Of a stretch of 42,023 nucleotides of DNA, positions 24,475 through 41,581 are shown one piece after another (position 1 is the first letter of the stretch; each line of letters starts with the position of its first letter). Both the position numbers and the translations under genes were made by a program. The DNA is from a virus. Taxonomy: Duplodnaviria > Caudoviricetes. The stretch is taken from IMG/VR virus record IMGVR_UViG_3300032332_000812, positions 1 to 42,023 of that record. One strand, given 5' to 3'. Below the pieces are notes generated by a model. It saw only the letters and a program-made list of their open reading frames with translations, searched no databases and was not told the origin of the DNA.

Positions 24475-25740
24475 ATGACCGATATAAGAAAATTAATCAA
24501 CCTCATTAAAATAAATGAATCTGCGGTAGACGATCGTCAGCTGGCACATCTTAAAACCATTATTTCGGGAAAAATCAAAGAGCTGCCACCAGATGATACC
24601 ACTATCAAAGCACTCCGCGAGATAGAAGATTTATTGCGTCACGTCAACGCTGGCGGAAAAATGGGAATAATAAACGGCGAGTTAGAAAAAGTTGATGATC
24701 CCACGGTACATGCAGCGCAGAAAGATTTGGCCCGTTACCTGTTGAGCATGGAGATGACCCCAGAGCAGCGTGAAGATTTGTTTAGTCTATGGCGCAGCGA
24801 CAAGTTGGTTAAACACAATGTATTGACCAAAATAGGTAAAAGTGATTTTAGCAAAATCATTACCAACTACGACAAAAATCCAGCCATTAAAGAATTCGTT
24901 AACGACATGATGCGTATATCTGCGCTGGGTCAAGGTAAAGGCGAGTTTGGCCTCAATGTGCTCAGCAAGCGTATCAACAAACAAGAAGGCAAAGGCGACT
25001 TAAATATTGCCGGGCGACCAATTGAAGTTAAAACCACAGATGGCGGTGCCGGAAGATTTACTGATCAAGAAGTGCGCCCGGGCAATGGCTTTGAAAAAGT
25101 AGCACGTGAGTTGTTTGGTCTACTACAACCATACCAAAAAAAGCTGACCAAGAGTGGTATGAACCTGGAAAACATCATCCAATTGGTTGAGATAATGAGC
25201 GGCAATCCTGACATGAAAAAAGAAGTAGCCAACATAGTGTCACTGATTGAAAAATCAGTTACTTTAATTTTTGCTGGTGAGGACGTCAGTAAAATACTAG
25301 CTGCTATCAAACAAGGTAATAGCAATCTGGCCAAGCAAGAGTATGCCAAGACCAGTTTTAACTATTATATGAATAAGAAAAACGATGAGGGTGTATTGTA
25401 TATCAGCCTGGTCAAAGATCCTATAATGACTGTGTTCTTTAAAAACGCCAATGATCTTGCAGCCAGTGGATTAAGATTACATGCTGGTACCATTTACATC
25501 ACCAGTGTAGATGATGTGCGCCTGCCTTACCCACAGTTGGAAATTGTTGACACCAGTGCAGGGCCATCGTTTGATGACGCCGAAGGTGGTGGGGTTGGTT
25601 CTGTAGGATCTGTAGGAGCCGTGCCTGAGCCAGAGATGCCAGACCCCAAAGCCAGTATGAGTGCAGATGCCATAACACCGCAAGCACCAGTTAACCCCAA
25701 ACCCCTGGCAGACCGAATAGGTAGGACAAAAAGAGCTTGA
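24475..25740 (+). CDS. Late-expressed protein with PD-(D/E)XK-like nuclease motif
   Basis: GKGE...GDLNIAGRPIEVKT; late promoter at 24447; N-terminus MTDIRKLINLIKINES. Confidence 0.6.
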   Translation: MTDIRKLINLIKINESAVDDRQLAHLKTIISGKIKELPPDDTTIKALREIEDLLRHVNAGGKMGIINGELEKVDDPTVHAAQKDLARYLLSMEMTPEQREDLFSLWRSDKLVKHNVLTKIGKSDFSKIITNYDKNPAIKEFVNDMMRISALGQGKGEFGLNVLSKRINKQEGKGDLNIAGRPIEVKTTDGGAGRFTDQEVRPGNGFEKVARELFGLLQPYQKKLTKSGMNLENIIQLVEIMSGNPDMKKEVANIVSLIEKSVTLIFAGEDVSKILAAIKQGNSNLAKQEYAKTSFNYYMNKKNDEGVLYISLVKDPIMTVFFKNANDLAASGLRLHAGTIYITSVDDVRLPYPQLEIVDTSAGPSFDDAEGGGVGSVGSVGAVPEPEMPDPKASMSADAITPQAPVNPKPLADRIGRTKRA

Positions 25741-25765
25741 CAACCAGCTAGAGCTCTTGTATAAT
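25737..25765 (+). promoter_or_regulatory. Consensus sigma70 promoter for the tRNA
   Basis: TTGACA-17 nt-TATAAT, 8 nt before the tRNA 5' end. Confidence 0.85.
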
Positions 25766-25773
25766 ACACACAA

Positions 25774-25851
<78 letters not shown>

Positions 25852-25864
25852 AATACCCTAGACA

Positions 25865-26473
25865 ATGACTTACACAACTTGGTCTACAACCAGCAACACT
25901 ATCACAGCGGCAGAACTTGACAAGTTAGCTGCCTTTATCGATCAAGAAATCACCAACAGCACAGAACCTGCTGCTGCCAATATGGGACTAAATCCCCCAG
26001 CTGGTTTCTTGTACAATATAAAAAATCAATTACGATGGCAAGCTGATGCAGGCGCTGTATACGTCGTTGAACATGATGATCAAATTGTAGCAGTCAGTGG
26101 TGTAGAGTATGCAGAAGGCACAAGATCATGGGCCATTGGTGGTATACGCACATGGATCACACCAACACACCGTACACAACAATTGCCTGGCGAAATGTTG
26201 AGGCAACAGACTGTGTGGGCACGTGAGCACAAATGTAATTTCATGCTGGTGACATTTAACGAATATAATCGCGCACTGTACACAGCAGTCAGCCGCGGCA
26301 TATATCGTAAAAGTCCAGGCTGGAGCACATGGTGGGATGACTGCACAGCAGTGCCTGATCCGGTTGTGATAAGATACACTGAACAGTGGTGTGTGATAAA
26401 ACCTGTCCTAGAGCAAGACAACCACAGTAATCTACTAGAATTAGCAGTATGGTCTACTGCTGCGAATAAATAA
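25865..26473 (+). CDS. GNAT-fold acyltransferase-like protein
   Basis: YVVEHDDQIVAVSGV, RTWITPTHRTQQL (motif A-like), WAREH, VTFNEYNRALY. Confidence 0.65.
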   Translation: MTYTTWSTTSNTITAAELDKLAAFIDQEITNSTEPAAANMGLNPPAGFLYNIKNQLRWQADAGAVYVVEHDDQIVAVSGVEYAEGTRSWAIGGIRTWITPTHRTQQLPGEMLRQQTVWAREHKCNFMLVTFNEYNRALYTAVSRGIYRKSPGWSTWWDDCTAVPDPVVIRYTEQWCVIKPVLEQDNHSNLLELAVWSTAANK

Positions 26474-26492
26474 TTGATCAACAAGGAATATC

Positions 26493-26717
26493 ATGAACGA
26501 TACCGAAAAATTAGCACTGATTTGCCGCGGCCTGGTAGAAATCAAAGGCAGAGAACTAAAAGCAGAAATCACTCCAGAAACCACATTGAGCAATGGTGGC
26601 CTTGACAGTCTGGATTCAATTGAACTACAGATGTGGATGGAAGAAACTCTGGGAAGAGAAATTCCAGAACCTGCATCTGCACCAGTGACCTTTAAGGACC
26701 TGATGGAGATGCTGTGA
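26493..26717 (+). CDS. Acyl carrier protein
   Basis: 74 aa, acidic; ITPETTL..GGLDSLDSIEL..WMEE phosphopantetheine site; AAGGA RBS; aTAAATA at 26467. Confidence 0.88.
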   Translation: MNDTEKLALICRGLVEIKGRELKAEITPETTLSNGGLDSLDSIELQMWMEETLGREIPEPASAPVTFKDLMEML

Positions 26718-26718
26718 C

Positions 26719-27648
26719 ATGCAGTTTACTCTAGGCAATCATTTAAAGTACTGGATCGAAGATAGACTATACGGACGCAGGGAATTACCCACTGACCGCT
26801 ATCGCGTAGAAGTAGGAGCAGTTGATCTAGATCAACTGCGCACCAGCAGCTGGCTCAAAGAACAATACCGCACAGCAGAAGCGGTGCGTGATCAGTTTGG
26901 TAAAGATTTTGTAGTCCTGTTCAGTGGCGGGACTGATAGCGAAATTGTTCTTAGAGCATTCCGTAAGGTTGGTGTGCGACCTAGAGTGGTATTCATACGT
27001 TTTGAAAATCGCTACAACAACATTGATTATATCAATGCACAAATGGTATGCGAGCAACTGGACATAGACTTAGAAGTCGCCGATGTCAAGGTCAAGGAAT
27101 TTTACAACAGCGGCGCCGCAGCGGAGTTTGCTGGAGAAATTGACTGTAGGCAAATGGCATACCTCACAGTGTATAACGAAATAAAACGCATGGGCATGCC
27201 TGCTGTCATGGGCGGGGAGATGTTGCTGCGCCGCCAGGTGCCTGCTGATCGGGACAGCTTCTGGTACTATGTGATACGTGAAAACGAAGATGCCAGTGCC
27301 ATGCGTTTCAGTCTCAAATACCAAATACCCTTGGTCAATGAATGGTTCAGCTACACACCAGAAATGATGGTGTATTACCTTGAGAATTCCTGGATACGCG
27401 GCATGGTCACCCAACGATTCAATTACAAACTAGGCAGTGTTAGCACAAAAAACAAAGTTCTATACGAATTCATGCCCGCACTGATACGCAAGGCCAAAAC
27501 CACAGGATATGAAAAACTCTTGGGCTTCAATGAAGAAACCTATAATACGCTGTACCAAACTCATGTGCGTAGATTAGAACCCAGCTTGGATGGCATACCA
27601 CTGACTGACTTATACCGACAATTAGGGATAGACGATGAAAATAATTAA
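26719..27648 (+). CDS. PP-loop (adenine nucleotide alpha-hydrolase) ATPase, asparagine-synthetase-C-like
   Basis: VVLFSGGTDSEIV PP-loop; VMGGE; K..GYEK near the C-terminus; no glutaminase domain. Confidence 0.7.
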   Translation: MQFTLGNHLKYWIEDRLYGRRELPTDRYRVEVGAVDLDQLRTSSWLKEQYRTAEAVRDQFGKDFVVLFSGGTDSEIVLRAFRKVGVRPRVVFIRFENRYNNIDYINAQMVCEQLDIDLEVADVKVKEFYNSGAAAEFAGEIDCRQMAYLTVYNEIKRMGMPAVMGGEMLLRRQVPADRDSFWYYVIRENEDASAMRFSLKYQIPLVNEWFSYTPEMMVYYLENSWIRGMVTQRFNYKLGSVSTKNKVLYEFMPALIRKAKTTGYEKLLGFNEETYNTLYQTHVRRLEPSLDGIPLTDLYRQLGIDDENN

Positions 27649-28231
27649 ACTTACTATGGATCATGCCGAGCATGCCAGACATTTATTTGATAACGAAAAG
27701 TACATGGGAGTTGAAGTCAACAACCAAACCTGGGGTACCACCACACACTATTTTGCACAGCTGACCTACAATAGATTCATCAATGCTTACCTGGCTGATC
27801 TCAAGAACTTTGGTGCCTATGGTGCTGTGGATGATGCAGGCACTGTACAGGCATTTGTCTGCTATTATACCAGCGCAGACGAACCCAGCTGGTTCTATAC
27901 TCTAGCTAGATCCAGTGGCGACAATCGGTTGTTAAAAGATGTGCTGGATGTTATCATTGCCATGCAAGAAGCACAGGGCAGAATGAAAGTTTACTCCTTG
28001 GTCAATGCCGAACACGCAAAAATACTGCGTAGACTGTATTGGAGTGAGTACAACAGCAATCGATACCACTATGTGGATGAGTACATGGTACCAGCTAAAT
28101 ACAAGACCTACTACAATCGAGATTGGGAGTTGTTGTTCAAGCGCAGCCTGCTGCCCAGTGACACCATTGTGCGATGCAGTTTCTTAAAACAAGAATTCCG
28201 TACTAATTTACCAATTGGAGGCAACATATGA
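27635..28231 (+). CDS. Hypothetical protein, possible divergent GNAT fold
   Basis: MKIIKLT, YGAVDDAGTVQAFV, ..QEAQGRMKVYSLV pattern. Confidence 0.5.
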   Translation: MKIIKLTMDHAEHARHLFDNEKYMGVEVNNQTWGTTTHYFAQLTYNRFINAYLADLKNFGAYGAVDDAGTVQAFVCYYTSADEPSWFYTLARSSGDNRLLKDVLDVIIAMQEAQGRMKVYSLVNAEHAKILRRLYWSEYNSNRYHYVDEYMVPAKYKTYYNRDWELLFKRSLLPSDTIVRCSFLKQEFRTNLPIGGNI

Positions 28232-29043
28232 TATTTGACTGGTCCAACAACGAAAACAAAGGTATATGGTTTGGCATGGTACCCATGATGATGCTGGGTG
28301 CTGCCACTGTGGCCTTGTTTGCCACCGGAACTATTCCCTTGGTGTACCTATGGGCCACGCTGTTCATGTGGATCATGATATCGGGTCTGGGCGTGGCAGT
28401 GGGATATCATCGTGTGTTCAGTCATCGCACACACAAATTGCCGGTGTGGAAAGAAAACATCATATTATGGTTTGGTGCCTTGAGCGCACAGGGTTCGGCA
28501 CTGTTTTGGGTGGCAGTACATCGCGGATATCATCATCCCTATGCAGACACTGAACGTGACGTACACAGTCCGGTGGTGTATGGTAAATGGCATGCATTTC
28601 TGGGCTGGATCAATCCGGATACCTTTGCCAAGGTCAATCTCAAATATTCAATCGATCTTTTAAAGAAACCCAATTTCACCTGGTTCCACAAGTACAACTA
28701 CGAAGTGCTATGGGGTACACCCTTGGTGATCGCCCTGTTTGATTGGCGCTTGGCAATGGCTGCATGCTTCTTGCCTGGCTTGATTGGACTCTTACAAGAC
28801 AACCTGGTCAATGTGGTTGGGCATACTCGACTGCTGATTGGATACAGAAATTTCGAAACTCGAGACCAAAGTCAGAACAATTTTCTCTGGGGTTATTTTG
28901 GGTGGGGGCAAGGATGGCACAATAACCATCATGCCAAGCCAGCCGAATATGACTTTGGCCGCACAGTGAGCGGTCGGTGGTGGGAGTTTGATCCGGCAGT
29001 TATTTTCTTACCATTCTTGGGTAAACCCACCAGAAGCACTTGA
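28228..29043 (+). CDS. Membrane fatty-acid (delta-9-type) desaturase
   Basis: His boxes GYHRVFSH, HRGYHH and WHNNHH; D.HSP; hydrophobic segments. Confidence 0.93.
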   Translation: MIFDWSNNENKGIWFGMVPMMMLGAATVALFATGTIPLVYLWATLFMWIMISGLGVAVGYHRVFSHRTHKLPVWKENIILWFGALSAQGSALFWVAVHRGYHHPYADTERDVHSPVVYGKWHAFLGWINPDTFAKVNLKYSIDLLKKPNFTWFHKYNYEVLWGTPLVIALFDWRLAMAACFLPGLIGLLQDNLVNVVGHTRLLIGYRNFETRDQSQNNFLWGYFGWGQGWHNNHHAKPAEYDFGRTVSGRWWEFDPAVIFLPFLGKPTRST

Positions 29044-29068
29044 CACTGAGTCACAAACATAGTACACT
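29040..29068 (+). promoter_or_regulatory. Sigma70-like promoter
   Basis: TTGACA-17 nt-TACACT. Confidence 0.7.
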
Positions 29069-29096
29069 GTGTTATTAACACTAACCGAGGTTTACT

Positions 29097-29246
29097 ATGT
29101 TTGAATCAATCGAAATCCGCAAAGTAGCAAATGGTTTCATACTTGTTGTGACCACACAAGATGACACAAAAGAATACGTATACGACACCAGCCGCAAAGC
29201 CCTGCGTGTGATCAAAGAATATCTAGAAGCTAAATCAACAAGCTAA
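29097..29246 (+). CDS. 49-aa hypothetical protein (missing from ORF track)
   Basis: GAGG RBS; MFESIEIRKVANGFILVVTTQDDTKEYVYDTSRKALRVIKEYLEAKSTS. Confidence 0.7.
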   Translation: MFESIEIRKVANGFILVVTTQDDTKEYVYDTSRKALRVIKEYLEAKSTS

Positions 29247-29265: not shown

Positions 29266-30306
29266 ATGAGTAAGAGAGTACTTGTCACCGGCGGTGCCGG
29301 TTTCATCGCACATCATGTAATAGACAAAATCCTAACAGAAACTGATTGGGAAATCGTCTGCTTGGACCGACTGGATATTTCCGGTAACCTAAATCGTCTG
29401 CATGATGTATTGCAAGATCATGATGCTGGCATGATATCAAGACGCATGAGTATCGTGTTCCATGATCTCAAGGCCGAATTAAACGAGATGATTGTCAAGG
29501 ACATTGGCAGCATTGATATTGTGTTACACTTGGCAGCAGGTAGCCATGTAGATCGCAGCATCACTTATCCCATGGAATTTGTGTTGGACAACACTGTGGG
29601 CACAGTCAACATGCTGGAGTATGCTCGTAAATATCTACCCAACTTGGAGCGTTTTGTCTACTTCAGTACAGACGAGATCTTTGGTGTTGCACCACCTGGG
29701 GTCAGCTATCGAGAATACGATCGCTACAACAGCACCAATCCCTACAGCGCCAGCAAGGCGGCCGCAGAAGAATTCTGCGTAGCATATGAGAACACCTACA
29801 AGCTGCCCATTGTGGTGACACACACCATGAATGTGTTTGGTGAACGTCAGCACCCTGAGAAGTTTATCCCCATGTGTATACAACGTGCCAGAGACGGCGA
29901 AAGAGTTTACATCCATGCCAATCCTGCCAAGACCGAAGCCGGTACACGCATGTATATCCATGCCAGAGATGTAGCCGAAGGCCTGATGTTTATCTTGAAC
30001 ACATTGCCAAGAGATTACCAACACACCGGTGACTACGGTACTGCACATTGTCCCAAGTTTAATCTGGTGGGCACAGAAGAGATTGATAATCTAAGCCTGG
30101 CACAGATGATTGCTGCTGCACAAGGCAAAGAATTGAATTATGAAATGGTTGACTTCCATGGCAGTCGCCCCGGCCATGACCTGCGGTATGCACTGGATGG
30201 CGGCCTGTTAAAGAGCCTGGGCTGGGAACCACGTATCAAACTGAGTGAGCGTATTGCAGAAATGGTACAGTGGACCTTGCAAAACAAAAGGTGGTTGAGC
30301 AAATGA
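29266..30306 (+). CDS. rmlB: dTDP-glucose 4,6-dehydratase-like extended SDR
   Basis: TGGAGFIA, HLAAGSHVDRSI, STDE, YSASK, HPEKFIP, RPGHDLRY. Confidence 0.9.
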   Translation: MSKRVLVTGGAGFIAHHVIDKILTETDWEIVCLDRLDISGNLNRLHDVLQDHDAGMISRRMSIVFHDLKAELNEMIVKDIGSIDIVLHLAAGSHVDRSITYPMEFVLDNTVGTVNMLEYARKYLPNLERFVYFSTDEIFGVAPPGVSYREYDRYNSTNPYSASKAAAEEFCVAYENTYKLPIVVTHTMNVFGERQHPEKFIPMCIQRARDGERVYIHANPAKTEAGTRMYIHARDVAEGLMFILNTLPRDYQHTGDYGTAHCPKFNLVGTEEIDNLSLAQMIAAAQGKELNYEMVDFHGSRPGHDLRYALDGGLLKSLGWEPRIKLSERIAEMVQWTLQNKRWLSK

Positions 30307-31025
30307 TACGTTCAGTTTTTATGATCACCAGCGCCATCAATACCAAATTTGGTGTGTACTCTAGCGAGCAACGACTGGAACAGACTCTGGCTACTATTGC
30401 CAGTGTGCGCAAACATGTGCCCGATGCTAGAATATTTCTACTAGAAATGGCTGGCTTGCCACTGAGTGCCGAGCAGGCTGCAACTCTTGGTGCCCAAGTA
30501 GAAAGCGTACTGGATTTCACCGGCGATCCCGATGTGGTCGGACTGTATAACAGTACTGACAACTGGGACGTGGTAAAAAATGTCACAGAAGTCATGTGCT
30601 TCAGCAAGGCACTGAAACGACTGCATCGTGATGCCATCAAATTTGAAAACACAGATCGTGTGTTCAAGTTGAGTGGACGTTATCTACTGAACAACCAATT
30701 TGATCTTGGTTGGTACGACAACTACAGAACACAGCACCTGATCACTGTGGGAGTCAGCCGAGGCAGTCAATTCCCATATGCTACTACCCTGGTAGAACGA
30801 CAGTACATGAGTCGTTTGTGGTCCTGGCCCACCAAGCTCACCGACGAAGTGATTGACATGTATGATCGCGGCCTGGTGTACATGGGCGAGCGCCTGGCGC
30901 AAGGAGGTTATGTGGATATCGAACACATGTTGTACAAATTCCTAGACCCCACAAAACTGATAGAAAAACAAATTTTAGGCCTAGAAGGCAATATCGCTCC
31001 CAATGGAGCAGCAGTACAAGACTAA
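30303..31025 (+). CDS. Hypothetical glycosyltransferase-like protein
   Basis: ITSAIN, RLEQTLATIAS, FKLSGRY, DIEH; sugar-cluster context. Confidence 0.55.
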   Translation: MIRSVFMITSAINTKFGVYSSEQRLEQTLATIASVRKHVPDARIFLLEMAGLPLSAEQAATLGAQVESVLDFTGDPDVVGLYNSTDNWDVVKNVTEVMCFSKALKRLHRDAIKFENTDRVFKLSGRYLLNNQFDLGWYDNYRTQHLITVGVSRGSQFPYATTLVERQYMSRLWSWPTKLTDEVIDMYDRGLVYMGERLAQGGYVDIEHMLYKFLDPTKLIEKQILGLEGNIAPNGAAVQD

Positions 31026-31026
31026 T

Positions 31027-32250
31027 ATGAAAACCTACACCAATTGCAATGCCTGTGGCAGCGAACACTTGACGCCAGTGCTGGATCTAAATCGCCAACC
31101 CTTGGCCAACAGTTTCCTATCGGCTGGAAACATGTCAGAAGACACTTACGAACTGGCAGTGGCGCTGTGCAACGATTGCTGTCACTTGCAGTTGACAGTG
31201 GCAATTGATCCGGATCTCATGTTCCGTAATTATCTTTATGTGAGTGGCACCAGCCAAACACATCGTGATTACATGCAGTGGTTTGCTGGCTTTGCTGCTG
31301 AATACTATACAAATCAAAGCCTAGTACATGCCAAGGTCTTGGACATTGGCTGCAACGACGGCACACAGTTGGACTTTTTTAAGAACCTGAGTGCCGACAC
31401 ATACGGAATTGATCCTGCTACCAATCTCTATGCCACCAGCAGCCAAAATCACAAAGTCACATGTGACTACTTTGGCGCAGACATGGCCGATGAGTTTGTG
31501 AAACAGAATGGCAGGATGAATCTAATAGTGGCGCAAAACAGCTTTGCACACAATCATGATCCACTAGCATACCTGCAGGCCATTAAAAAAGTTCTAGCAG
31601 TAAACGGCTTGATGTTTATCAGTACTAGTCAAGCAGACATGGTGCTGAACAATGAGTTTGATACCATCTATCATGAGCATGTTAATTTTTTCAATATCAA
31701 CAGCATGCACCGGTTGTGCCAACGTGCCGGATTAAACTTGATTGATGTGGTCAAGCATCCCATACATGGTACCAGCTATATCTTTGTCATCAGCCCGTCT
31801 GTGGCACACCCTGGGCGCATACGCAACTTTATTGAGCTGGAACGAGATCAAGGTCTACTAGATCCCAAGACATATCACCAGTGGGCACGTAATGTACGTG
31901 CCATGGTTGATGAGCTCAAGCAGGTATTACAACAGTATCGCAGTGATGGATATCTGCTGGTGGGCTATGGTGCTGCGGCCAAAGGTAATACCTTGCTGAA
32001 TTTTGTTGACGAGCGACTGGATGTCATAATTGATGACAACCCACTCAAGCAGGGCAAGTACAGCCCAGGCCAACACATTCCTGTTGTGGCCATTGGTTAT
32101 TTGGACCATGTGTTGGTCAACCGAGCCATAGCATTTGTTCCGCTGGCATGGAATTTCTACACTGAAATCAAGCAGCGCATACAACGCAAACGCACAAATT
32201 CGCTAGATTGTTTTGTGCGATATTTTCCCAATGTAAGAGTAGAAACATGA
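31027..32250 (+). CDS. NDP-hexose C-methyltransferase (Zn-finger + SAM + C-terminal domain)
   Basis: CNACG, QPLAN, C..C.HLQL, LDIGCNDG, FDTIYHEH, HGTS, YGAAAKGNT, DDNPLKQG..PG, LAWNF. Confidence 0.9.
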   Translation: MKTYTNCNACGSEHLTPVLDLNRQPLANSFLSAGNMSEDTYELAVALCNDCCHLQLTVAIDPDLMFRNYLYVSGTSQTHRDYMQWFAGFAAEYYTNQSLVHAKVLDIGCNDGTQLDFFKNLSADTYGIDPATNLYATSSQNHKVTCDYFGADMADEFVKQNGRMNLIVAQNSFAHNHDPLAYLQAIKKVLAVNGLMFISTSQADMVLNNEFDTIYHEHVNFFNINSMHRLCQRAGLNLIDVVKHPIHGTSYIFVISPSVAHPGRIRNFIELERDQGLLDPKTYHQWARNVRAMVDELKQVLQQYRSDGYLLVGYGAAAKGNTLLNFVDERLDVIIDDNPLKQGKYSPGQHIPVVAIGYLDHVLVNRAIAFVPLAWNFYTEIKQRIQRKRTNSLDCFVRYFPNVRVET

Positions 32251-33104
32251 ACATATTGGTAATTAGACAAGGAGCCCTAGGCGACGTAATCATGACCACA
32301 GGCGTGGTACGTGCCTTGGGTGAGCGATATACTGGTGCAGTGATTGATGTGGCCACCGACAGTCCCGAAGTATTCCGCAGCAGCACCCGAGTGAGAACTG
32401 CTGCTCCGGGTGGTGTTTTTAATCGCAGTGACTATGATCTAGTGGTTGACTTGGACCAGGCATACGAGTTGTCGCCCGGACAGCATGCCATTGATGCGTA
32501 TGCTGCTCGTGCAGGTATCGATCCCGCCACGACAGACCTGCACACCGAACTGTTTGTTGAACCCGAGGACCATGCTTTCCTGGCACAGGCCAACTTGCCC
32601 GAACGATTCGTTGTCTTTCATCAGCGCCAGCATTTCTGGCCCAATCGCAACCTGCCCGGTGATTTCTATATCGAGCTGGCCAGCAAGATTATTGGCTTGA
32701 CTGGGCATGCGGTGGTACAGATTGGTGGCAATCAAGATTACACATTTGGTACCATTGATGGTTGTCTATATGATCTCACACATCAATTGACTCTGCACCA
32801 GACCGCTGCTCTTATCAGTCGTGCTAGAGCATTTGTTGGAGTTGATGCTGGGCCCATGCACATAGCATCAGCAACTGCAACACCTATTGTTGCCATGTTC
32901 ACCAGTGTGCGAGCCGAGTATAGAGAAGCTAGAGATCGTCCAGTACCGCATATCAGTATTGCCAGCGCAATTGACTGCTATGGTTGTGTAGAGCGTTTAC
33001 CGGTACCGCTGACACAGTATCATTGTGAGCGCGGCGATGCTGAATGTACACGTAGATTTTCAGCTGATGCAATCATTGAACAATTAAAAACCTTACTAGT
33101 ATGA
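32247..33104 (+). CDS. GT9 (heptosyltransferase-like) glycosyltransferase
   Basis: ILVIRQGALGDVI, L.QTAALI, FVGVDAGPMHIASA. Confidence 0.88.
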   Translation: MNILVIRQGALGDVIMTTGVVRALGERYTGAVIDVATDSPEVFRSSTRVRTAAPGGVFNRSDYDLVVDLDQAYELSPGQHAIDAYAARAGIDPATTDLHTELFVEPEDHAFLAQANLPERFVVFHQRQHFWPNRNLPGDFYIELASKIIGLTGHAVVQIGGNQDYTFGTIDGCLYDLTHQLTLHQTAALISRARAFVGVDAGPMHIASATATPIVAMFTSVRAEYREARDRPVPHISIASAIDCYGCVERLPVPLTQYHCERGDAECTRRFSADAIIEQLKTLLV

Positions 33105-33919
33105 AGAAATTAAACAATGTCACATTGGTCATGCAAGAAACCATGTACCATGACCTTGCACAACGATCACTGGAATATACCCTGGATCGTTGTGAGTTTG
33201 CCGAAGTGGTCACATTCAGTGACCGAGATATCTTGCCCGGTGCTCGCAATGTAAAAATAGAACACTTCCCGTCGGTCAGTGACTACTGTGAATTTATGTT
33301 GCGAGGTATGTTGCCGCATATCAATACCGAGTTCATGTTGTTCCAACAATGGGATGCCATGGTGCATGATGCCGCAGCCTGGCAAGATCAATTCTTAGAC
33401 TATGACTATATCGGCGCACGTTGGCCATGGTGGCCCGAGGGAATTAATATAGGCAATGGTGGATTCAGCCTGCGCAGTCACCGCCTGTTGGCAGCACTAC
33501 AAGATCCTATTATACAGATGCAGCCCGATAATCCCCATGCTGAACATGAAGATCAGCTGATTGGTATGGAACATCGAGTGTATCTGACTCACAAATATGG
33601 TATTCGATATCCGCACTCGGAATTGGCTAGACAGTTCAGTTACGAAGTTGGCGAATATGTTCCCAGCTGGGGATTTCATGGACCGTGGAACGTGATAAAA
33701 TTTTGTGACGATGCCACTGTTGAATATTTCGTTGAGCACATGAACTACAAGGGCTGGAATCATTTCAAATGGCACCATGTATTGTTTGCCTTGATCAAGC
33801 GCGGTCGCCAGGATCTAGTTGAACAGGTTACACTCAAGATGACCGCACACGGAGCAGAACATGTCAGTCGTGTACTAAAGATGTTAGAGTCAAATATTTT
33901 TGACAACTACATATATTAA
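33101..33919 (+). CDS. DUF5672-like putative glycosyltransferase
   Basis: QWD, FLDYDYIGARW, GNGGFSLRS, ED, A.QFSYE, GFH. Confidence 0.8.
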   Translation: MKKLNNVTLVMQETMYHDLAQRSLEYTLDRCEFAEVVTFSDRDILPGARNVKIEHFPSVSDYCEFMLRGMLPHINTEFMLFQQWDAMVHDAAAWQDQFLDYDYIGARWPWWPEGINIGNGGFSLRSHRLLAALQDPIIQMQPDNPHAEHEDQLIGMEHRVYLTHKYGIRYPHSELARQFSYEVGEYVPSWGFHGPWNVIKFCDDATVEYFVEHMNYKGWNHFKWHHVLFALIKRGRQDLVEQVTLKMTAHGAEHVSRVLKMLESNIFDNYIY

Positions 33920-33932
33920 CTTAAATATCTAC

Positions 33933-34544
33933 ATGACCAATAAAACATTTGATCCTGCAAGGCATGTGGGAACAGAAACCAGCAAAAGCTATCGATACCT
34001 AATAGACTCGGGATTCATGCAACGCTACTTCAGTGGCGACAACATCGTTGAAATTGGTTATTCGGGCGGCAACGGTGCAGTGCCCATAACAGAAAACGCC
34101 ATCGGAATTGATCGAAACTATCCCGGATATGATGGTGTACACTTGCCATTTCCGGACCTGAGCCAAGACACTGTCTACTCTAGTCACTGCCTAGAGCACC
34201 TGCCCAATCCACAAACAGCCTTGGCTGACTGGTTTCGTGTTGTGCGAGTTGGCGGACACCTGATCATTGCAGTGCCGCATCAACAACTGTACGAAAAGAA
34301 AATGATGATGCCTAGCCGTTACAGCCATGAGCACCTGAAGTTCTACATGCCCAGCACCTTACTACTAGATATCGAGCGAGCATTGCCATTTGGTGAGTGG
34401 CGCCTGCGCGGCCTATACGACAACGACATGGGATTTGATTACTCGCTATCAGCATATGAACACAGCACTGGCTGTTTAGAAATCATAGCCATCATTGAGC
34501 GTATACCTCGGCATGCCTACATTGGTCAAATGCTGACATCTTAA
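33933..34544 (+). CDS. Class I SAM-dependent methyltransferase
   Basis: VEIGYSGG, LPFPD.SQD.VYSSHCLEH, RVVRVGGHL; TAAATA 5 nt before ATG 33933. Confidence 0.85.
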   Translation: MTNKTFDPARHVGTETSKSYRYLIDSGFMQRYFSGDNIVEIGYSGGNGAVPITENAIGIDRNYPGYDGVHLPFPDLSQDTVYSSHCLEHLPNPQTALADWFRVVRVGGHLIIAVPHQQLYEKKMMMPSRYSHEHLKFYMPSTLLLDIERALPFGEWRLRGLYDNDMGFDYSLSAYEHSTGCLEIIAIIERIPRHAYIGQMLTS

Positions 34545-34561
34545 AAATAAAAAGGTAAATT

Positions 34562-35719
34562 ATGAAATTTAGATTACATGTACTGGGCGTTCCACACACC
34601 ATCAGCAACAAAGATTACGTGGCCTGTGCGTTCACGCAAAAGGTAGTCAAGTTCTGCGCCATGATGAAGGCCCGCGGACATACCATTATTCATTACGGAC
34701 ACGACCAGAGTGATGTTGAGTGCGATGAAAATGTTGCGGTCACCAACAACGAACAATTGGAAAAAGCCTATGGTGATCATGACTGGCGCGCCCAAGAATT
34801 CAAGTACGATATTAACGACAGTGCATACAAATTCTTCTATGAAAATGCCATACGTGAGATTGGCAAAAGAAAACAAAAGAATGATTTCCTGCTGTGTTTC
34901 TGGGGTTGGGGACACAAATCAATTGCTGATGCACACTCAGACATGTTGGTGGTAGAACCTGGCATCGGTTACCCTGGCGGCATCTTTGCACCCTATCGTG
35001 TATTTGAAAGTCAGAGCATCATGGCAGCTTGGTTTGGCATGAAAGGTGTCAGCGGCCCCGGTGAGTTCAGCTGGTATGATGCAGTTATTCCCAACTACTT
35101 TGATACCGCAGACTTTGACTTTCGAGAAGACAAAGAAGACTACTTCCTGTACCTGGGACGCATTGGTGAACACAAGGGCACACACATTGCCATTCAAGCC
35201 ACCGAAGCCATTGGTGCAAAATTAAAGATTGCTGGACAAGGTAACCTAGAGCGCATGGGCTACAAAAAGACGCCGGACCACGTGGAAGTTGTGGGCTATG
35301 CTGACCTAGAAAAACGCCGCCGACTCATGAGTGGAGCACGTGGGCAGTTTGTCATGACCTTGTACGGCGAGCCATTTGGTGGTGTGCAGATCGAAAGCAT
35401 GCTGAGTGGAACTCCGGTTATCAGTACTGACTGGGCCTGCTTTGGTGAACTGAATCTGCACGGGGTCACTGGCTATCGTTGTAGGACATTTGAGCAAGTG
35501 ACCTGGGCGGCGCGCAACATCGCCCGTATCAACCCCAAAAACTGTCGCGAGTGGGGCGAAAATTTCAACTTTGACAAGGTTGGACTCATGTACGAAGAAT
35601 ACTTCTACAGTATCGTAAACATACATGGTGGTAAAGGTTGGTATGAAACCAACCCGGGGCGCACCCAGCTGGACTGGCTCACACGCAAGTATCCCACACA
35701 TCCCAACCGGGAAATCTGA
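34562..35719 (+). CDS. GT4-family glycosyltransferase
   Basis: VIPN, YLGRIGEHKG, EPFGGVQIESMLSGTPVISTD. Confidence 0.9.
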   Translation: MKFRLHVLGVPHTISNKDYVACAFTQKVVKFCAMMKARGHTIIHYGHDQSDVECDENVAVTNNEQLEKAYGDHDWRAQEFKYDINDSAYKFFYENAIREIGKRKQKNDFLLCFWGWGHKSIADAHSDMLVVEPGIGYPGGIFAPYRVFESQSIMAAWFGMKGVSGPGEFSWYDAVIPNYFDTADFDFREDKEDYFLYLGRIGEHKGTHIAIQATEAIGAKLKIAGQGNLERMGYKKTPDHVEVVGYADLEKRRRLMSGARGQFVMTLYGEPFGGVQIESMLSGTPVISTDWACFGELNLHGVTGYRCRTFEQVTWAARNIARINPKNCREWGENFNFDKVGLMYEEYFYSIVNIHGGKGWYETNPGRTQLDWLTRKYPTHPNREI

Positions 35720-39828: not shown

Positions 39829-40496
39829 TGGCCGATAACATTAACATAAAAAAAGATTTCTTATATCTTTTAAAAGACGAACTAAATGATGGCATCCTAC
39901 ATGCTACTGATTCATATGATGCAGCAACTGCCATGTCATTGTTTTCCCCAAGAATTACACTGACACCAATTGAGACACAGGCACCATGGTTAAAGGAAAA
40001 TTTAAAAACTCCAGACTATAAAAATAAACATGTATTTTTAAAATGGGAATCCAAAAACGCATTGCGATTTGTAGTGCCTCTTGAAGAAAACGAAATAACG
40101 CCAGAATACATTGCATACCGGAATGAAATTATAGTACGGACTCGTTATCAAGAACTTCTAATAACACGTTGCGATATACTTTTAGTAACAAATGGTATTG
40201 AAACTCCGATGCTAGAAAGATATGCTGCGACAATAGTCAATGAGCTATCAAAATGTTCAGTTGAGGAAAACACGTTTTCACCGGCTGTTGTAAATTATGC
40301 AATAATCAGTGAAATTGATACGGTAACTGCATTTAATGAATTAAAGTTACACATTGACAACATGGCACAAACACGCCTGAGAAATTTAGCGGTTTATATC
40401 AAGTTTAGAAATATACTGAATCGATCGCCATTGGCGGATCAAGGAAAAATATTTGAATTAGCAATCGATGCAATTTATAGGGCTTCCCAAGCATGA
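39828..40496 (+). CDS. Hypothetical protein (AT-rich cassette, gene 1)
   Basis: AAGGAGG RBS; TGATG overlap. Confidence 0.7.
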   Translation: MADNINIKKDFLYLLKDELNDGILHATDSYDAATAMSLFSPRITLTPIETQAPWLKENLKTPDYKNKHVFLKWESKNALRFVVPLEENEITPEYIAYRNEIIVRTRYQELLITRCDILLVTNGIETPMLERYAATIVNELSKCSVEENTFSPAVVNYAIISEIDTVTAFNELKLHIDNMAQTRLRNLAVYIKFRNILNRSPLADQGKIFELAIDAIYRASQA

Positions 40497-41581
40497 AACA
40501 ATTAATACTGGCAACACAATCAAGCGCAATGGAATCCTTGGGCCACCCGGACGTAAAAGACTGGGCAGGCATTTATAATCTAATCAGTAAAAACGTAAAC
40601 ATCATTGATCGTTGTGAACACCTTATTACACCTTTTAACTTTAAGAGTGTATTCCCAATCCCTGCCACTGACAACTTTAACAAGACCTACGAAGAAGTTT
40701 GTATTGAATCAGCACAAAAGATTATTGCCCATAGTCGTGCAATCAACAAGCCAATTTTGATCATGTACAGTGGTGGCATTGACAGTACCGTGGTAGCTGT
40801 TAGCTTTATGATTGCGGCTGAAGGTGACTACAGCAATTTAAAGATTGCACTTAGCACACATAGCATTAGAGAAAACGCAAACTTCTATTATGATCATATC
40901 CGTGGAAAGATTGAAGTAATCCCAAGCGAAACAGCGTTGGATTCGATCACATCTGACTATATCATTGTTGGTGGTGAAGGGAACGACCAGTTGTTTGGTA
41001 CTGACATTTATAAAACCATACGAAATTATGCCGGTATTCCTTTTATACACCAACCATATACTGAGCAAAATATAACTGACTTTTTCAAGCATTATGGCCT
41101 TAGTGAAAGGCAAGCAACTGTTTGGTATTCGCTGATGCATGATCAAATTCGTGCAACTCAAATAGCAGATATTACAACTGTCAAAGATTTCTTTTGGTGG
41201 TACAATTTCTGCTACAAGTGGCAAAACGTGTATTTTAGAATACCTGCACGTAGTACTTCTAGTCAACCATTGTCTAAAGAGTTTTTGGACACGTACTACT
41301 TTCAGTTTTTTATGAATGATGATTTTCAAAGATGGAGTATTTTAAATCCAGACAAGAAGATTGAAGATACTTGGAAGAGTTATAAAAAAGCTGCCAAAGA
41401 ATTTATCTACAAGTTTAACGACGACCGAGAATACTTTTTAAATAAAACAAAAGTACCTAGCTTAATAAACATTTTTAGACAGCGTAAAGTTCATCCGGGC
41501 ATTGACAGCAATTATTCATTAATGACCGAGCTTGACCCTGCTGAATATTATAATCCAAACAACAGCTTTGCTAACTTTTAA
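40493..41581 (+). CDS. Asparagine-synthetase-C-like PP-loop ATPase (cassette gene 2)
   Basis: IMYSGGIDST and IVGGEGNDQLFG motifs; no N-terminal Cys glutaminase domain. Confidence 0.75.
   Translation: MKQLILATQSSAMESLGHPDVKDWAGIYNLISKNVNIIDRCEHLITPFNFKSVFPIPATDNFNKTYEEVCIESAQKIIAHSRAINKPILIMYSGGIDSTVVAVSFMIAAEGDYSNLKIALSTHSIRENANFYYDHIRGKIEVIPSETALDSITSDYIIVGGEGNDQLFGTDIYKTIRNYAGIPFIHQPYTEQNITDFFKHYGLSERQATVWYSLMHDQIRATQIADITTVKDFFWWYNFCYKWQNVYFRIPARSTSSQPLSKEFLDTYYFQFFMNDDFQRWSILNPDKKIEDTWKSYKKAAKEFIYKFNDDREYFLNKTKVPSLINIFRQRKVHPGIDSNYSLMTELDPAEYYNPNNSFANF

Follow-up and report, generated by a model that had tools for sequence, protein, structure and literature searches.

A conserved ligase, acyltransferase and desaturase gene module of uncultured large phages, possibly for an unsaturated acyl amide

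Several described systems transfer an acyl chain from a carrier protein to an amine, or form an amide at the expense of ATP. In ornithine-lipid synthesis, OlsB carries out the transfer from acyl-ACP (ACP, acyl carrier protein) to an amine, while OlsA is a PlsC-type O-acyltransferase. The locus described here, a module of five genes at 25865-29043 of the virus record IMGVR_UViG_3300032332_000812 (42,023 nt, the whole of which is called the window), encodes two predicted GNAT acyltransferases, an ACP, an ATP-dependent ligase and a membrane desaturase. Ornithine-lipid and aminolipid synthesis shares with the predicted chemistry of the module the acyl-ACP-to-amine transfer of OlsB. Tailoring by 2-oxoglutarate hydroxylases and an ATP-dependent amide link at the head group, as in the taurine transfer of cerilipin, are further likenesses (PMC12971839). 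The phage module has neither an OlsB-family match nor an O-acyltransferase, and it differs further in its ligase of AsnB fold, its two GNATs, its own ACP and its SCD-type desaturase. The alkyne cassettes JamABC and TtuABC also combine an ATP-dependent activating enzyme, a dedicated ACP and a membrane di-iron desaturase (bioRxiv 10.1101/291195), but the phage ATP enzyme is of the AsnB class rather than an ANL acyl-ACP ligase, there are two GNATs, the ACP is optional, and no polyketide synthase or nonribosomal peptide synthetase lies in the fetched flanks. The carrier-dependent GNATs FeeM, SbzI and GdvG have, like GNAT-1, a changed CoA loop (PMC11685415) and lie beside, or are fused with, a carrier protein; the phage GNATs have no FeeM profile match and are linked to an AsnB-like ligase and a desaturase. 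Beta-lactam synthetase, carbapenam synthetase and the lasso cyclases have the same synthetase-domain fold and PP-loop as the phage ligase, which is, however, only 10-14% identical to the AsnB-class enzymes without a glutaminase domain, is partnered or fused with GNATs, and is not accompanied by lasso B proteins in the scanned phage loci.

Judged from its sequences, the module resembles carrier-dependent N-acyl amide synthesis, yet it fails the defining features of JamABC, OlsBA, lasso, QueC and FeeM/LuxI/OlsB systems. Membership of the OlsBA ornithine-lipid pathway is rejected, since no PlsC-type OlsA is found among the 24 window proteins scanned with profiles or among 35 scanned phage neighbour families (clustered from open reading frames above 55-60 aa). 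A JamABC-type system is rejected because the module has no ANL-family acyl-ACP ligase; an AMP-binding (ANL, PF00501) enzyme occurs in one of four larger relatives, about 190 kb from the module. A lasso-peptide cluster is rejected because neither an RRE (PqqD) nor a leader peptidase occurs among the same window proteins and neighbour families; both are present in one bacterial homologue locus.

The lipid genes described in phages are single auxiliary enzymes, while here a multi-step pathway linked to a carrier protein appears to extend across many uncultured large phages. Phage desaturases are known in GenBank as single genes (three records, 27% identity), ACPs are listed, again as single genes, in 2 of 153 cyanophages (PMC10452541), and no homologue of the ligase or of the second GNAT was found in 50,697 GenBank phage records, a set that may lack records very close to the window. 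Acyl carrier, desaturase, PP-loop and asparagine all go unmentioned in the available text of a jumbo-phage review (PMC7824862), and the main text of the aminolipid review (PMC12971839) never uses the word phage. Literature listings and the openings of abstracts gave no published description of the module, in line with the original prediction, which knew of no phage system of such make-up. The module is conserved in phages and apparently undescribed, and its pairing of ligase and GNAT matches no system found.

The five genes of the module are as follows:

25865-26473, + strand: GNAT-1, 202 aa, predicted carrier-protein-dependent acyltransferase; PF00583 match at E 0.0016, too weak to pass the cut-off
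26493-26717, + strand: ACP, 74 aa, with a GLDSL motif (Ser39); PF00550 match of 29.2 bits against a cut-off of 20.8
26719-27648, + strand: predicted ligase, AsnB/beta-lactam-synthetase-like, without a glutaminase domain, 309 aa; SGGTDS at residues 69-74
27635-28231, + strand: GNAT-2, 198 aa, with a modelled GNAT fold and a shortened acyl-donor loop
28228-29043, + strand: predicted membrane di-iron desaturase of the SCD/delta-9 type, 271 aa; HRVFSH, HRGYHH and HNNHH motifs, PF00487 match of 42.8 bits

All five open reading frames, their spacing and the named motifs were re-found where the original prediction had placed them. From GNAT-1 to the desaturase, the genes are separated by a 19-nt gap, a 1-nt gap, a 14-nt overlap and a 4-nt overlap, and the same gene order is seen again in relatives. 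Their G+C content (0.43-0.48) is that of the window. Compared with the relative L002, all five have ratios of nonsynonymous to synonymous substitution (dN/dS) of 0.03-0.20 by an approximate Nei-Gojobori method; the value for the ACP is below 0.05, with saturated synonymous sites. The genes are thus real, intact and under purifying selection. The window also encodes a tail sheath, tail tube, terminase, SSB and UvsX, the structural and replication genes of a myovirus, and the nearest relatives of its tail sheath (44-45% identity) are in the jumbo phages Phosso and Atu_ph07 and in the PA5oct group. One metatranscriptome run covers a small share of the window, with contigs over flanking genes and none over 25874-29077, and says nothing on expression.

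Homologues of the ligase form 762 clusters at 90% identity and 529 representatives at 50%. Loci were retrieved by conserved ligase patterns, so those counted below sample one clade. A set of 151 loci was fetched; with the window, 146 had an anchor of at least 40% identity over 200 residues and fell into 103 clusters at 95%, of which the 64 with at least 2.5 kb on both sides were counted and the remaining 39 left out. Within 2.6 kb of the ligase and on the same strand, GNAT-2 is found in all 64 loci, the desaturase in 63, GNAT-1 in 49 and the ACP in 43, and all five genes are together in 36. When the whole fetched locus is counted, GNAT-1 is present in 52 of the 64 and another family, f12, in nine others. 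Since f12 is a homologue of GNAT-1 (hhalign 95.5%, E 1.5e-8) and never occurs alongside it, a GNAT-1-type gene is present in 61 of the 64 loci. The synteny expected of related phages therefore holds for the core. The ACP, which had been taken as a fixed member, is missing from 21 loci while the other four genes are near-constant, so that the module has a core of four genes to which the ACP is an optional addition. In G002, a phage record of 524 kb with a rating of complete, the four core genes are retained and two positive controls were detected, but the ACP is not found. On the ligase tree, which is a quick tree, the ACP has been gained or lost at least four times (eight events on the quick tree as it stands). 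G002 also has seven matches to the ligase profile, a large paralogue expansion.

By its predicted fold and its SGGxDS motif, the ligase is an AsnB-class PP-loop domain. The AlphaFold2 model has a predicted local distance difference test score (pLDDT) of 96.4, and its best structural matches in VIA-align are asparagine, beta-lactam and carbapenam synthetases (Z 15.3-12.8), with human ASNS at Z 15.3 (root mean square deviation, rmsd, 3.7 over 257 aligned residues), AsnB at 14.3 and beta-lactam synthetase at 14.0. NAD synthetase, LarE, QueC and the tRNA enzymes score lower (Z at most 10.3, with QueC at 9.0 and tRNA enzymes at most 9). The modelled fold, at Z 14-15, thus supports the earlier placement in the AsnB/beta-lactam-synthetase class. 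In the PP-loop, S69 is conserved in 137, G71 in 139 and S74 in 136 of 139 homologues, and the conserved positions further include SGGxDS, GE, YTPE, K244, K260, G263 and E265. No profile match to a glutaminase domain is found in the 309 residues or in 12 longer homologues; as the N-terminal Ntn glutaminase domain is lacking, a glutamine-dependent asparagine synthetase is rejected. Sequence searches of the PDB give weak PP-loop matches for the ligase and none for GNAT-2. Weak profile matches to QueC, MnmA and TilS, a PF06508 match limited to residues 65-132 and a partial QueC match in PADLOC are also obtained. Enzymes of the QueC/Cap9 type have a C-terminal Cys zinc motif. The ligase has no zinc motif and only two cysteines, Cys111 and Cys143 (the latter in 87 of 139 members of the wider family), so the partial match is not membership, and this type is rejected.

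GNAT-2 has no Pfam match. Its AlphaFold2 model (pLDDT 93.6) has a GNAT fold (Foldseek E 3e-7; VIA-align Z 13.9, rmsd 2.8, 148 aligned), as anticipated when the fourth gene was called GNAT-like. The best 50 structural matches are near-tied generic GNATs, with RimI and Ard1 among the top matches and tied with small-molecule GNATs; FeeM and LuxI are not among these 50, which is no exclusion. Its look-alikes in the ESM Atlas are viral GNAT-like clusters. Seven ligase homologues are longer than 430 aa: three have a GNAT domain by profile, two are GNAT-like by eye only, two are tandem ligases and none has a glutaminase. In P0197 the GNAT-2-like domain is C-terminal to the ligase (E 1.9e-7); in P0246 the GNAT is N-terminal (PF00583, 8e-12), as it is, weakly, in P0195. 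A complex prediction for ligase and GNAT-2 scored 0.01, which gives no verdict.

A weak profile match and motifs place GNAT-1 in the GNAT superfamily. At E of 0.05 or below, 21 of 70 family members match PF00583 (best 3.9e-5) and 25 match PF13508, and R95, R103 and N135 are invariant. The CoA loop of GNATs has the motif Q/R-x-x-G-x-G/A, and changes in this loop are characteristic of carrier-protein-dependent members such as SbzI and FeeM (PMC11685415). Neither phage GNAT has this motif of acyl-CoA-using GNATs intact: the loop is shortened in GNAT-2, and GNAT-1 has Gly at the CoA-loop glycine position in 1 of 77 sequences and Tyr, Phe or Trp in 63. This position is likewise aromatic in loci without an ACP (Tyr in 11 of 13); f12 keeps the Gly in 8 of 12 and is predicted to prefer CoA. 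Because its loop changes match those marking carrier-dependent GNATs (PMC11685415), GNAT-1 is taken to use acyl-ACP, which would be supplied by the host where the phage has no ACP. The likeness to FeeM, LuxI and OlsB proposed earlier does not extend to their profile families, which match 0 of 70 GNAT-1 and 0 of 98 GNAT-2 members at the same threshold.

In the ACP, D38, S39 and L40 are invariant in 36 of 36 aligned members, and the protein has both the DSL serine and the PF00550 match. GNAT-1 and the ACP are fused into a single reading frame in six locus clusters, a natural arrangement that supports the coupling of ACP and GNAT envisaged before. Together with the fusions of ligase and GNAT-2, it ties the parts of the module together. 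The four GNAT-1–ACP fusions with full flanks all fall in one part of the ligase tree and could stem from one fusion event.

The desaturase profile matches mouse SCD1 (E 3e-28) and human SCD1 (E 2e-26). In SCD1 the metal is bound by nine His and an Asn. Nine His (H61, H66, H98, H102, H103, H199, H231, H234 and H235) are invariant in 53 of 53 sequences, N195 is conserved in at least 90%, and the sequence has hydrophobic segments. These features assign the protein to the SCD-type (delta-9) membrane desaturases, and the presence of such an enzyme points to a long acyl chain. Since no ketosynthase is found in the four larger relatives and their one AMP-binding enzyme is distant, the chain is most likely host-derived. 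Reliance on host fatty-acid synthesis, as originally proposed, is consistent with this, while reliance on a host AcpS is not universal: one of five relatives searched, G005, encodes its own AcpS within the cluster, which lends indirect support to phosphopantetheinylation of the ACP. The cluster of G005 (L152:2566-13268) is an extended one, in which the ACP and the ligase each occur twice, as does GNAT-2, and the desaturases number three; it also encodes an FkbM methyltransferase, a radical SAM enzyme and hydroxylases. The AMP-binding enzyme about 190 kb off the module lies in a separate phage island (L202, G003:C1:42000-60000) with several radical SAM-like genes.

The module neighbours in relatives are variable and include 2-oxoglutarate oxygenases, TauD-like, radical SAM, Rieske and SDR genes. 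The commonest family, f4, is found in 45 of the 64 loci, and its one scanned representative matches PF05118 (E 7e-7), to which LpxO presumably belongs. Radical SAM families are found in 31 of the 64. The aminolipid hydroxylases OlsC and OlsD are LpxO homologues, and taurine is transferred to the carboxyl group of an aminolipid in an ATP-dependent reaction whose gene is unidentified (PMC12971839).

Three further features lie within or directly upstream of the module, the last two of them additions to the original prediction:

26467-26472, + strand: TAAATA late-type motif, in ATAAATA at 26466-26472, 20 nt upstream of the ACP start
25737-25765, + strand: sigma-70-type consensus, 12/12 match with a 17-nt spacer (a consensus match only), ahead of the tRNA and GNAT-1
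25774-25851, + strand: tRNA with a CAT anticodon, which stops 13 nt short of GNAT-1; probably a bystander rather than a member of the pathway

The overall frequency of TAAATA in the window is not raised (24 against 21.5 expected). On the plus strand, 10 of 21 copies lie 5-60 nt upstream of gene starts (P 2e-7, with a gene-start list compiled by the analyst), including those of the tail sheath, the tail tube and the ACP. No other hexamer is as frequent upstream of genes when all loci are taken together, with 308 of 1240 starts; the next TAA-hexamer, a check for an artefact of TAA stops, is at 110. In 31 of 53 loci, TAAATA is found near the start of GNAT-1 or of the ACP. The late-type motif noted earlier ahead of the ACP thus has a non-chance position in the window and across loci. 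The late promoter consensus of phage T4 resembles TAAATA and, because of this and of the structural genes behind it, the motif is read as a putative late promoter. The start of GNAT-1 has no evident Shine-Dalgarno sequence. The tRNA has a G27-U43 pair, which we take to be a feature of tRNA-Ile2, so its assignment to Met is uncertain.

Bacteria have the ligase family too: within one phylum (labelled Bdellovibrionota), 15 of 301 genomes encode it, and phage and bacterial sequences form separate groups in the ligase tree. In 18 bacterial regions from 13 genomes, the ligase is near GNATs (six genomes), desaturases (three), hydroxylases and HTTM proteins. One of these bacteria has an island in which the radical SAM enzyme shares 50% identity, and the hydroxylase 44%, with the counterparts in G005. 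The bacterial island L206:3154-12473 (from G092) encodes a GNAT-2-like protein, radical SAM enzymes, hydroxylases, desaturase-like and HTTM-like proteins, and a small protein resembling those with a twin-arginine translocation (Tat) signal and weakly like the small phage family f17. Small proteins with twin-arginine-like leaders also adjoin bacterial ligase homologues at L190:7678-8097, L192:2787-3209, L195:7116-7424 and L196:8309-8800; they are possible substrates, two of them rich in Cys and one with a Peptidase_S74 chaperone domain at its end.

The reading that we favour, still tentatively, is that the module is an ACP-fed pathway by which the infected cell, probably late in infection, would make an unsaturated N-acyl amide lipid free of phosphorus. 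Such a lipid is ranked first because the membrane desaturase is a near-constant partner, hydroxylases are common neighbours and aminolipid tailoring offers a parallel. The phage ACP, or else a host ACP, would be phosphopantetheinylated by AcpS and loaded with an acyl chain from host fatty-acid synthesis, and GNAT-1 would transfer this chain to a head-group amine, supplied by an amino acid or a polyamine. The ligase, acting with GNAT-2 as a unit, would activate a carboxylate by ATP-dependent adenylation and form a second amide link. The desaturase would put in a double bond at the membrane, on either the acyl-ACP or the finished lipid, and in most relatives the variable 2-oxoglutarate oxygenases and radical SAM enzymes may tailor the product further. 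The purpose may be to remodel the envelope of the infected cell, for example against rival phages or in favour of progeny release.

Several observations weigh against a lipid made in this way. Neither GNAT has a FeeM, LuxI or OlsB profile match, a third of the counted loci have no ACP, and the GNAT-1–ACP fusions may have a single origin. The 12 tailoring families tested are all absent from the window, and PF05118 includes protein hydroxylases as well. The O-acyltransferase of the PlsC type is lacking among the proteins and families scanned, a gap that a host enzyme could fill. No ACP is flagged near the ligase in the 18 bacterial regions, and GNAT-1, if no other gene, is probably expressed earlier, to judge from the perfect sigma-70 match in front of it. 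Late timing and the peptide-maturation genes found next to bacterial homologues fit a protein or peptide acceptor equally well. The product, the substrates and the expression of the module are all at the level of prediction. Since the module is only 3.2 kb long, a direct test by co-expression and lipidomics is feasible. If a product were shown, lytic jumbo phages would make specialised lipids or lipidated proteins; the module might also supply candidates for the ATP-dependent head-group ligases of aminolipids that still await identification.

A broader proposal, doubtful in its full extent, is that a widespread lineage of uncultured jumbo phages has its own carrier-protein secondary metabolism, in which a new AsnB-ligase/GNAT unit and an ACP-dependent acyltransferase would build a diversified unsaturated acyl amide. 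Timed by late promoters, this amide would be attached to virion proteins or to the host envelope and serve as weapon or disguise. Such phage-made lipidation chemistry would have no described counterpart, and the tailoring enzymes would be shared with predatory Bdellovibrionota.

Among the alternatives to a lipid, a protein acceptor survives best, even if it is unlikely. Here the phage would run its own protein lipidation: GNAT-1 would move the unsaturated acyl chain from the ACP to a virion or host protein, which the ligase would amidate or cross-link. The late-type motif is common to the ACP and to the tail sheath, the tail tube and other structural genes, which suits this explanation, as do the bacterial ligase homologues near PqqD, S26 peptidase and HprK-like genes (L193), near YcaO and a TOMM leader-binding protein (L200), and near HTTM proteins. 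GdvG is known to acylate a peptide. For goadvionin biosynthesis, GdvG and AprG are cited as GNATs that depend on a carrier (PMC11685415). The presence of RimI and Ard1 among the top structural matches of GNAT-2 also favours a protein substrate, but they are level with small-molecule GNATs. The 35 phage neighbour families contain no RRE or peptidase, and the near-constant membrane desaturase suits a lipid better. The candidate acceptor family f17 is present in just 9 of the 64 loci and absent from the window, and its likeness to the bacterial Tat-signal protein is weak (E 4e-5 in a six-sequence search; hhalign 12%); it is rejected as an acceptor.

It is quite improbable that ligase and GNAT-2 instead act as an unorthodox acyl-ACP synthetase, which would charge the ACP with a free acid for the desaturase to convert to an alkene or alkyne and GNAT-1 to off-load onto an amine. 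CitC is a precedent of sorts, being an ACP ligase of the GNAT-plus-HUP kind, and the literature search gave no paper on it. The combination of ACP, ATP-dependent adenylating enzyme and membrane desaturase parallels JamA, JamB and JamC (bioRxiv 10.1101/291195), ligase and GNAT-2 are inseparable (64 of 64 loci, and the fusion P0197), and an ANL-type ligase is missing from three of the four larger relatives and far from the module in the fourth. The solved AsnB-class matches, however, form amides rather than thioesters, the pair is retained where the phage has no ACP at all, and Cys143 is far from constant in the wider ligase family.

More doubtful still is a diffusible N-acyl amide, such as a signal mimic or an antibacterial, that would be released on lysis instead of staying in a membrane. 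Carrier-dependent GNATs could carry out FeeM/LuxI-type chemistry and the tailoring enzymes around the module are highly variable, but the profile matches to LuxI and FeeM are missing, and the 35 neighbour families contain no exporter, only a TctC-type receptor in six loci. It is very improbable that a nucleic acid, be it the neighbouring CAT tRNA or another, is the target of the ligase and GNATs in the manner of TilS, MnmA or QueC, with the ACP and desaturase unrelated: the tRNA abuts GNAT-1 and weak profile matches to all three enzymes exist, but a CAT tRNA is within 2.6 kb in only 6 of the 64 loci, so that a link of the module to the tRNA is rejected, the AsnB-class fold scores well above the tRNA enzymes, the ligase has two Cys and no zinc motif, and the desaturase accompanies it in 63 of the 64.

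Right after the module, at 29266-35719 (+), is a sugar-modifying cluster of an NAD-dependent epimerase/dehydratase, a C-methyltransferase, GT9, DUF5672, a methyltransferase and GT1, which is probably separate from the module because its epimerase family occurs in only 6 of the 103 locus clusters. Between the two, a sigma-70-like site at 29040-29068 (+; 10/12) overlaps the desaturase stop and is followed by a 49-aa reading frame (29097-29246) without an NCBIfam match. A second, distant PP-loop/AsnB-like gene at 40493-41581 (+; 362 aa), found with the wider ligase profile (E 4.5e-9), lies beside a methyltransferase and unannotated genes. Upstream of the module, 24475-25740 (+) encodes an unannotated protein of 421 aa behind a TAAATA motif; relatives carry different proteins there with a similar N-terminal stretch, which suggests that this product and its counterparts are internal virion proteins with a shared leader.

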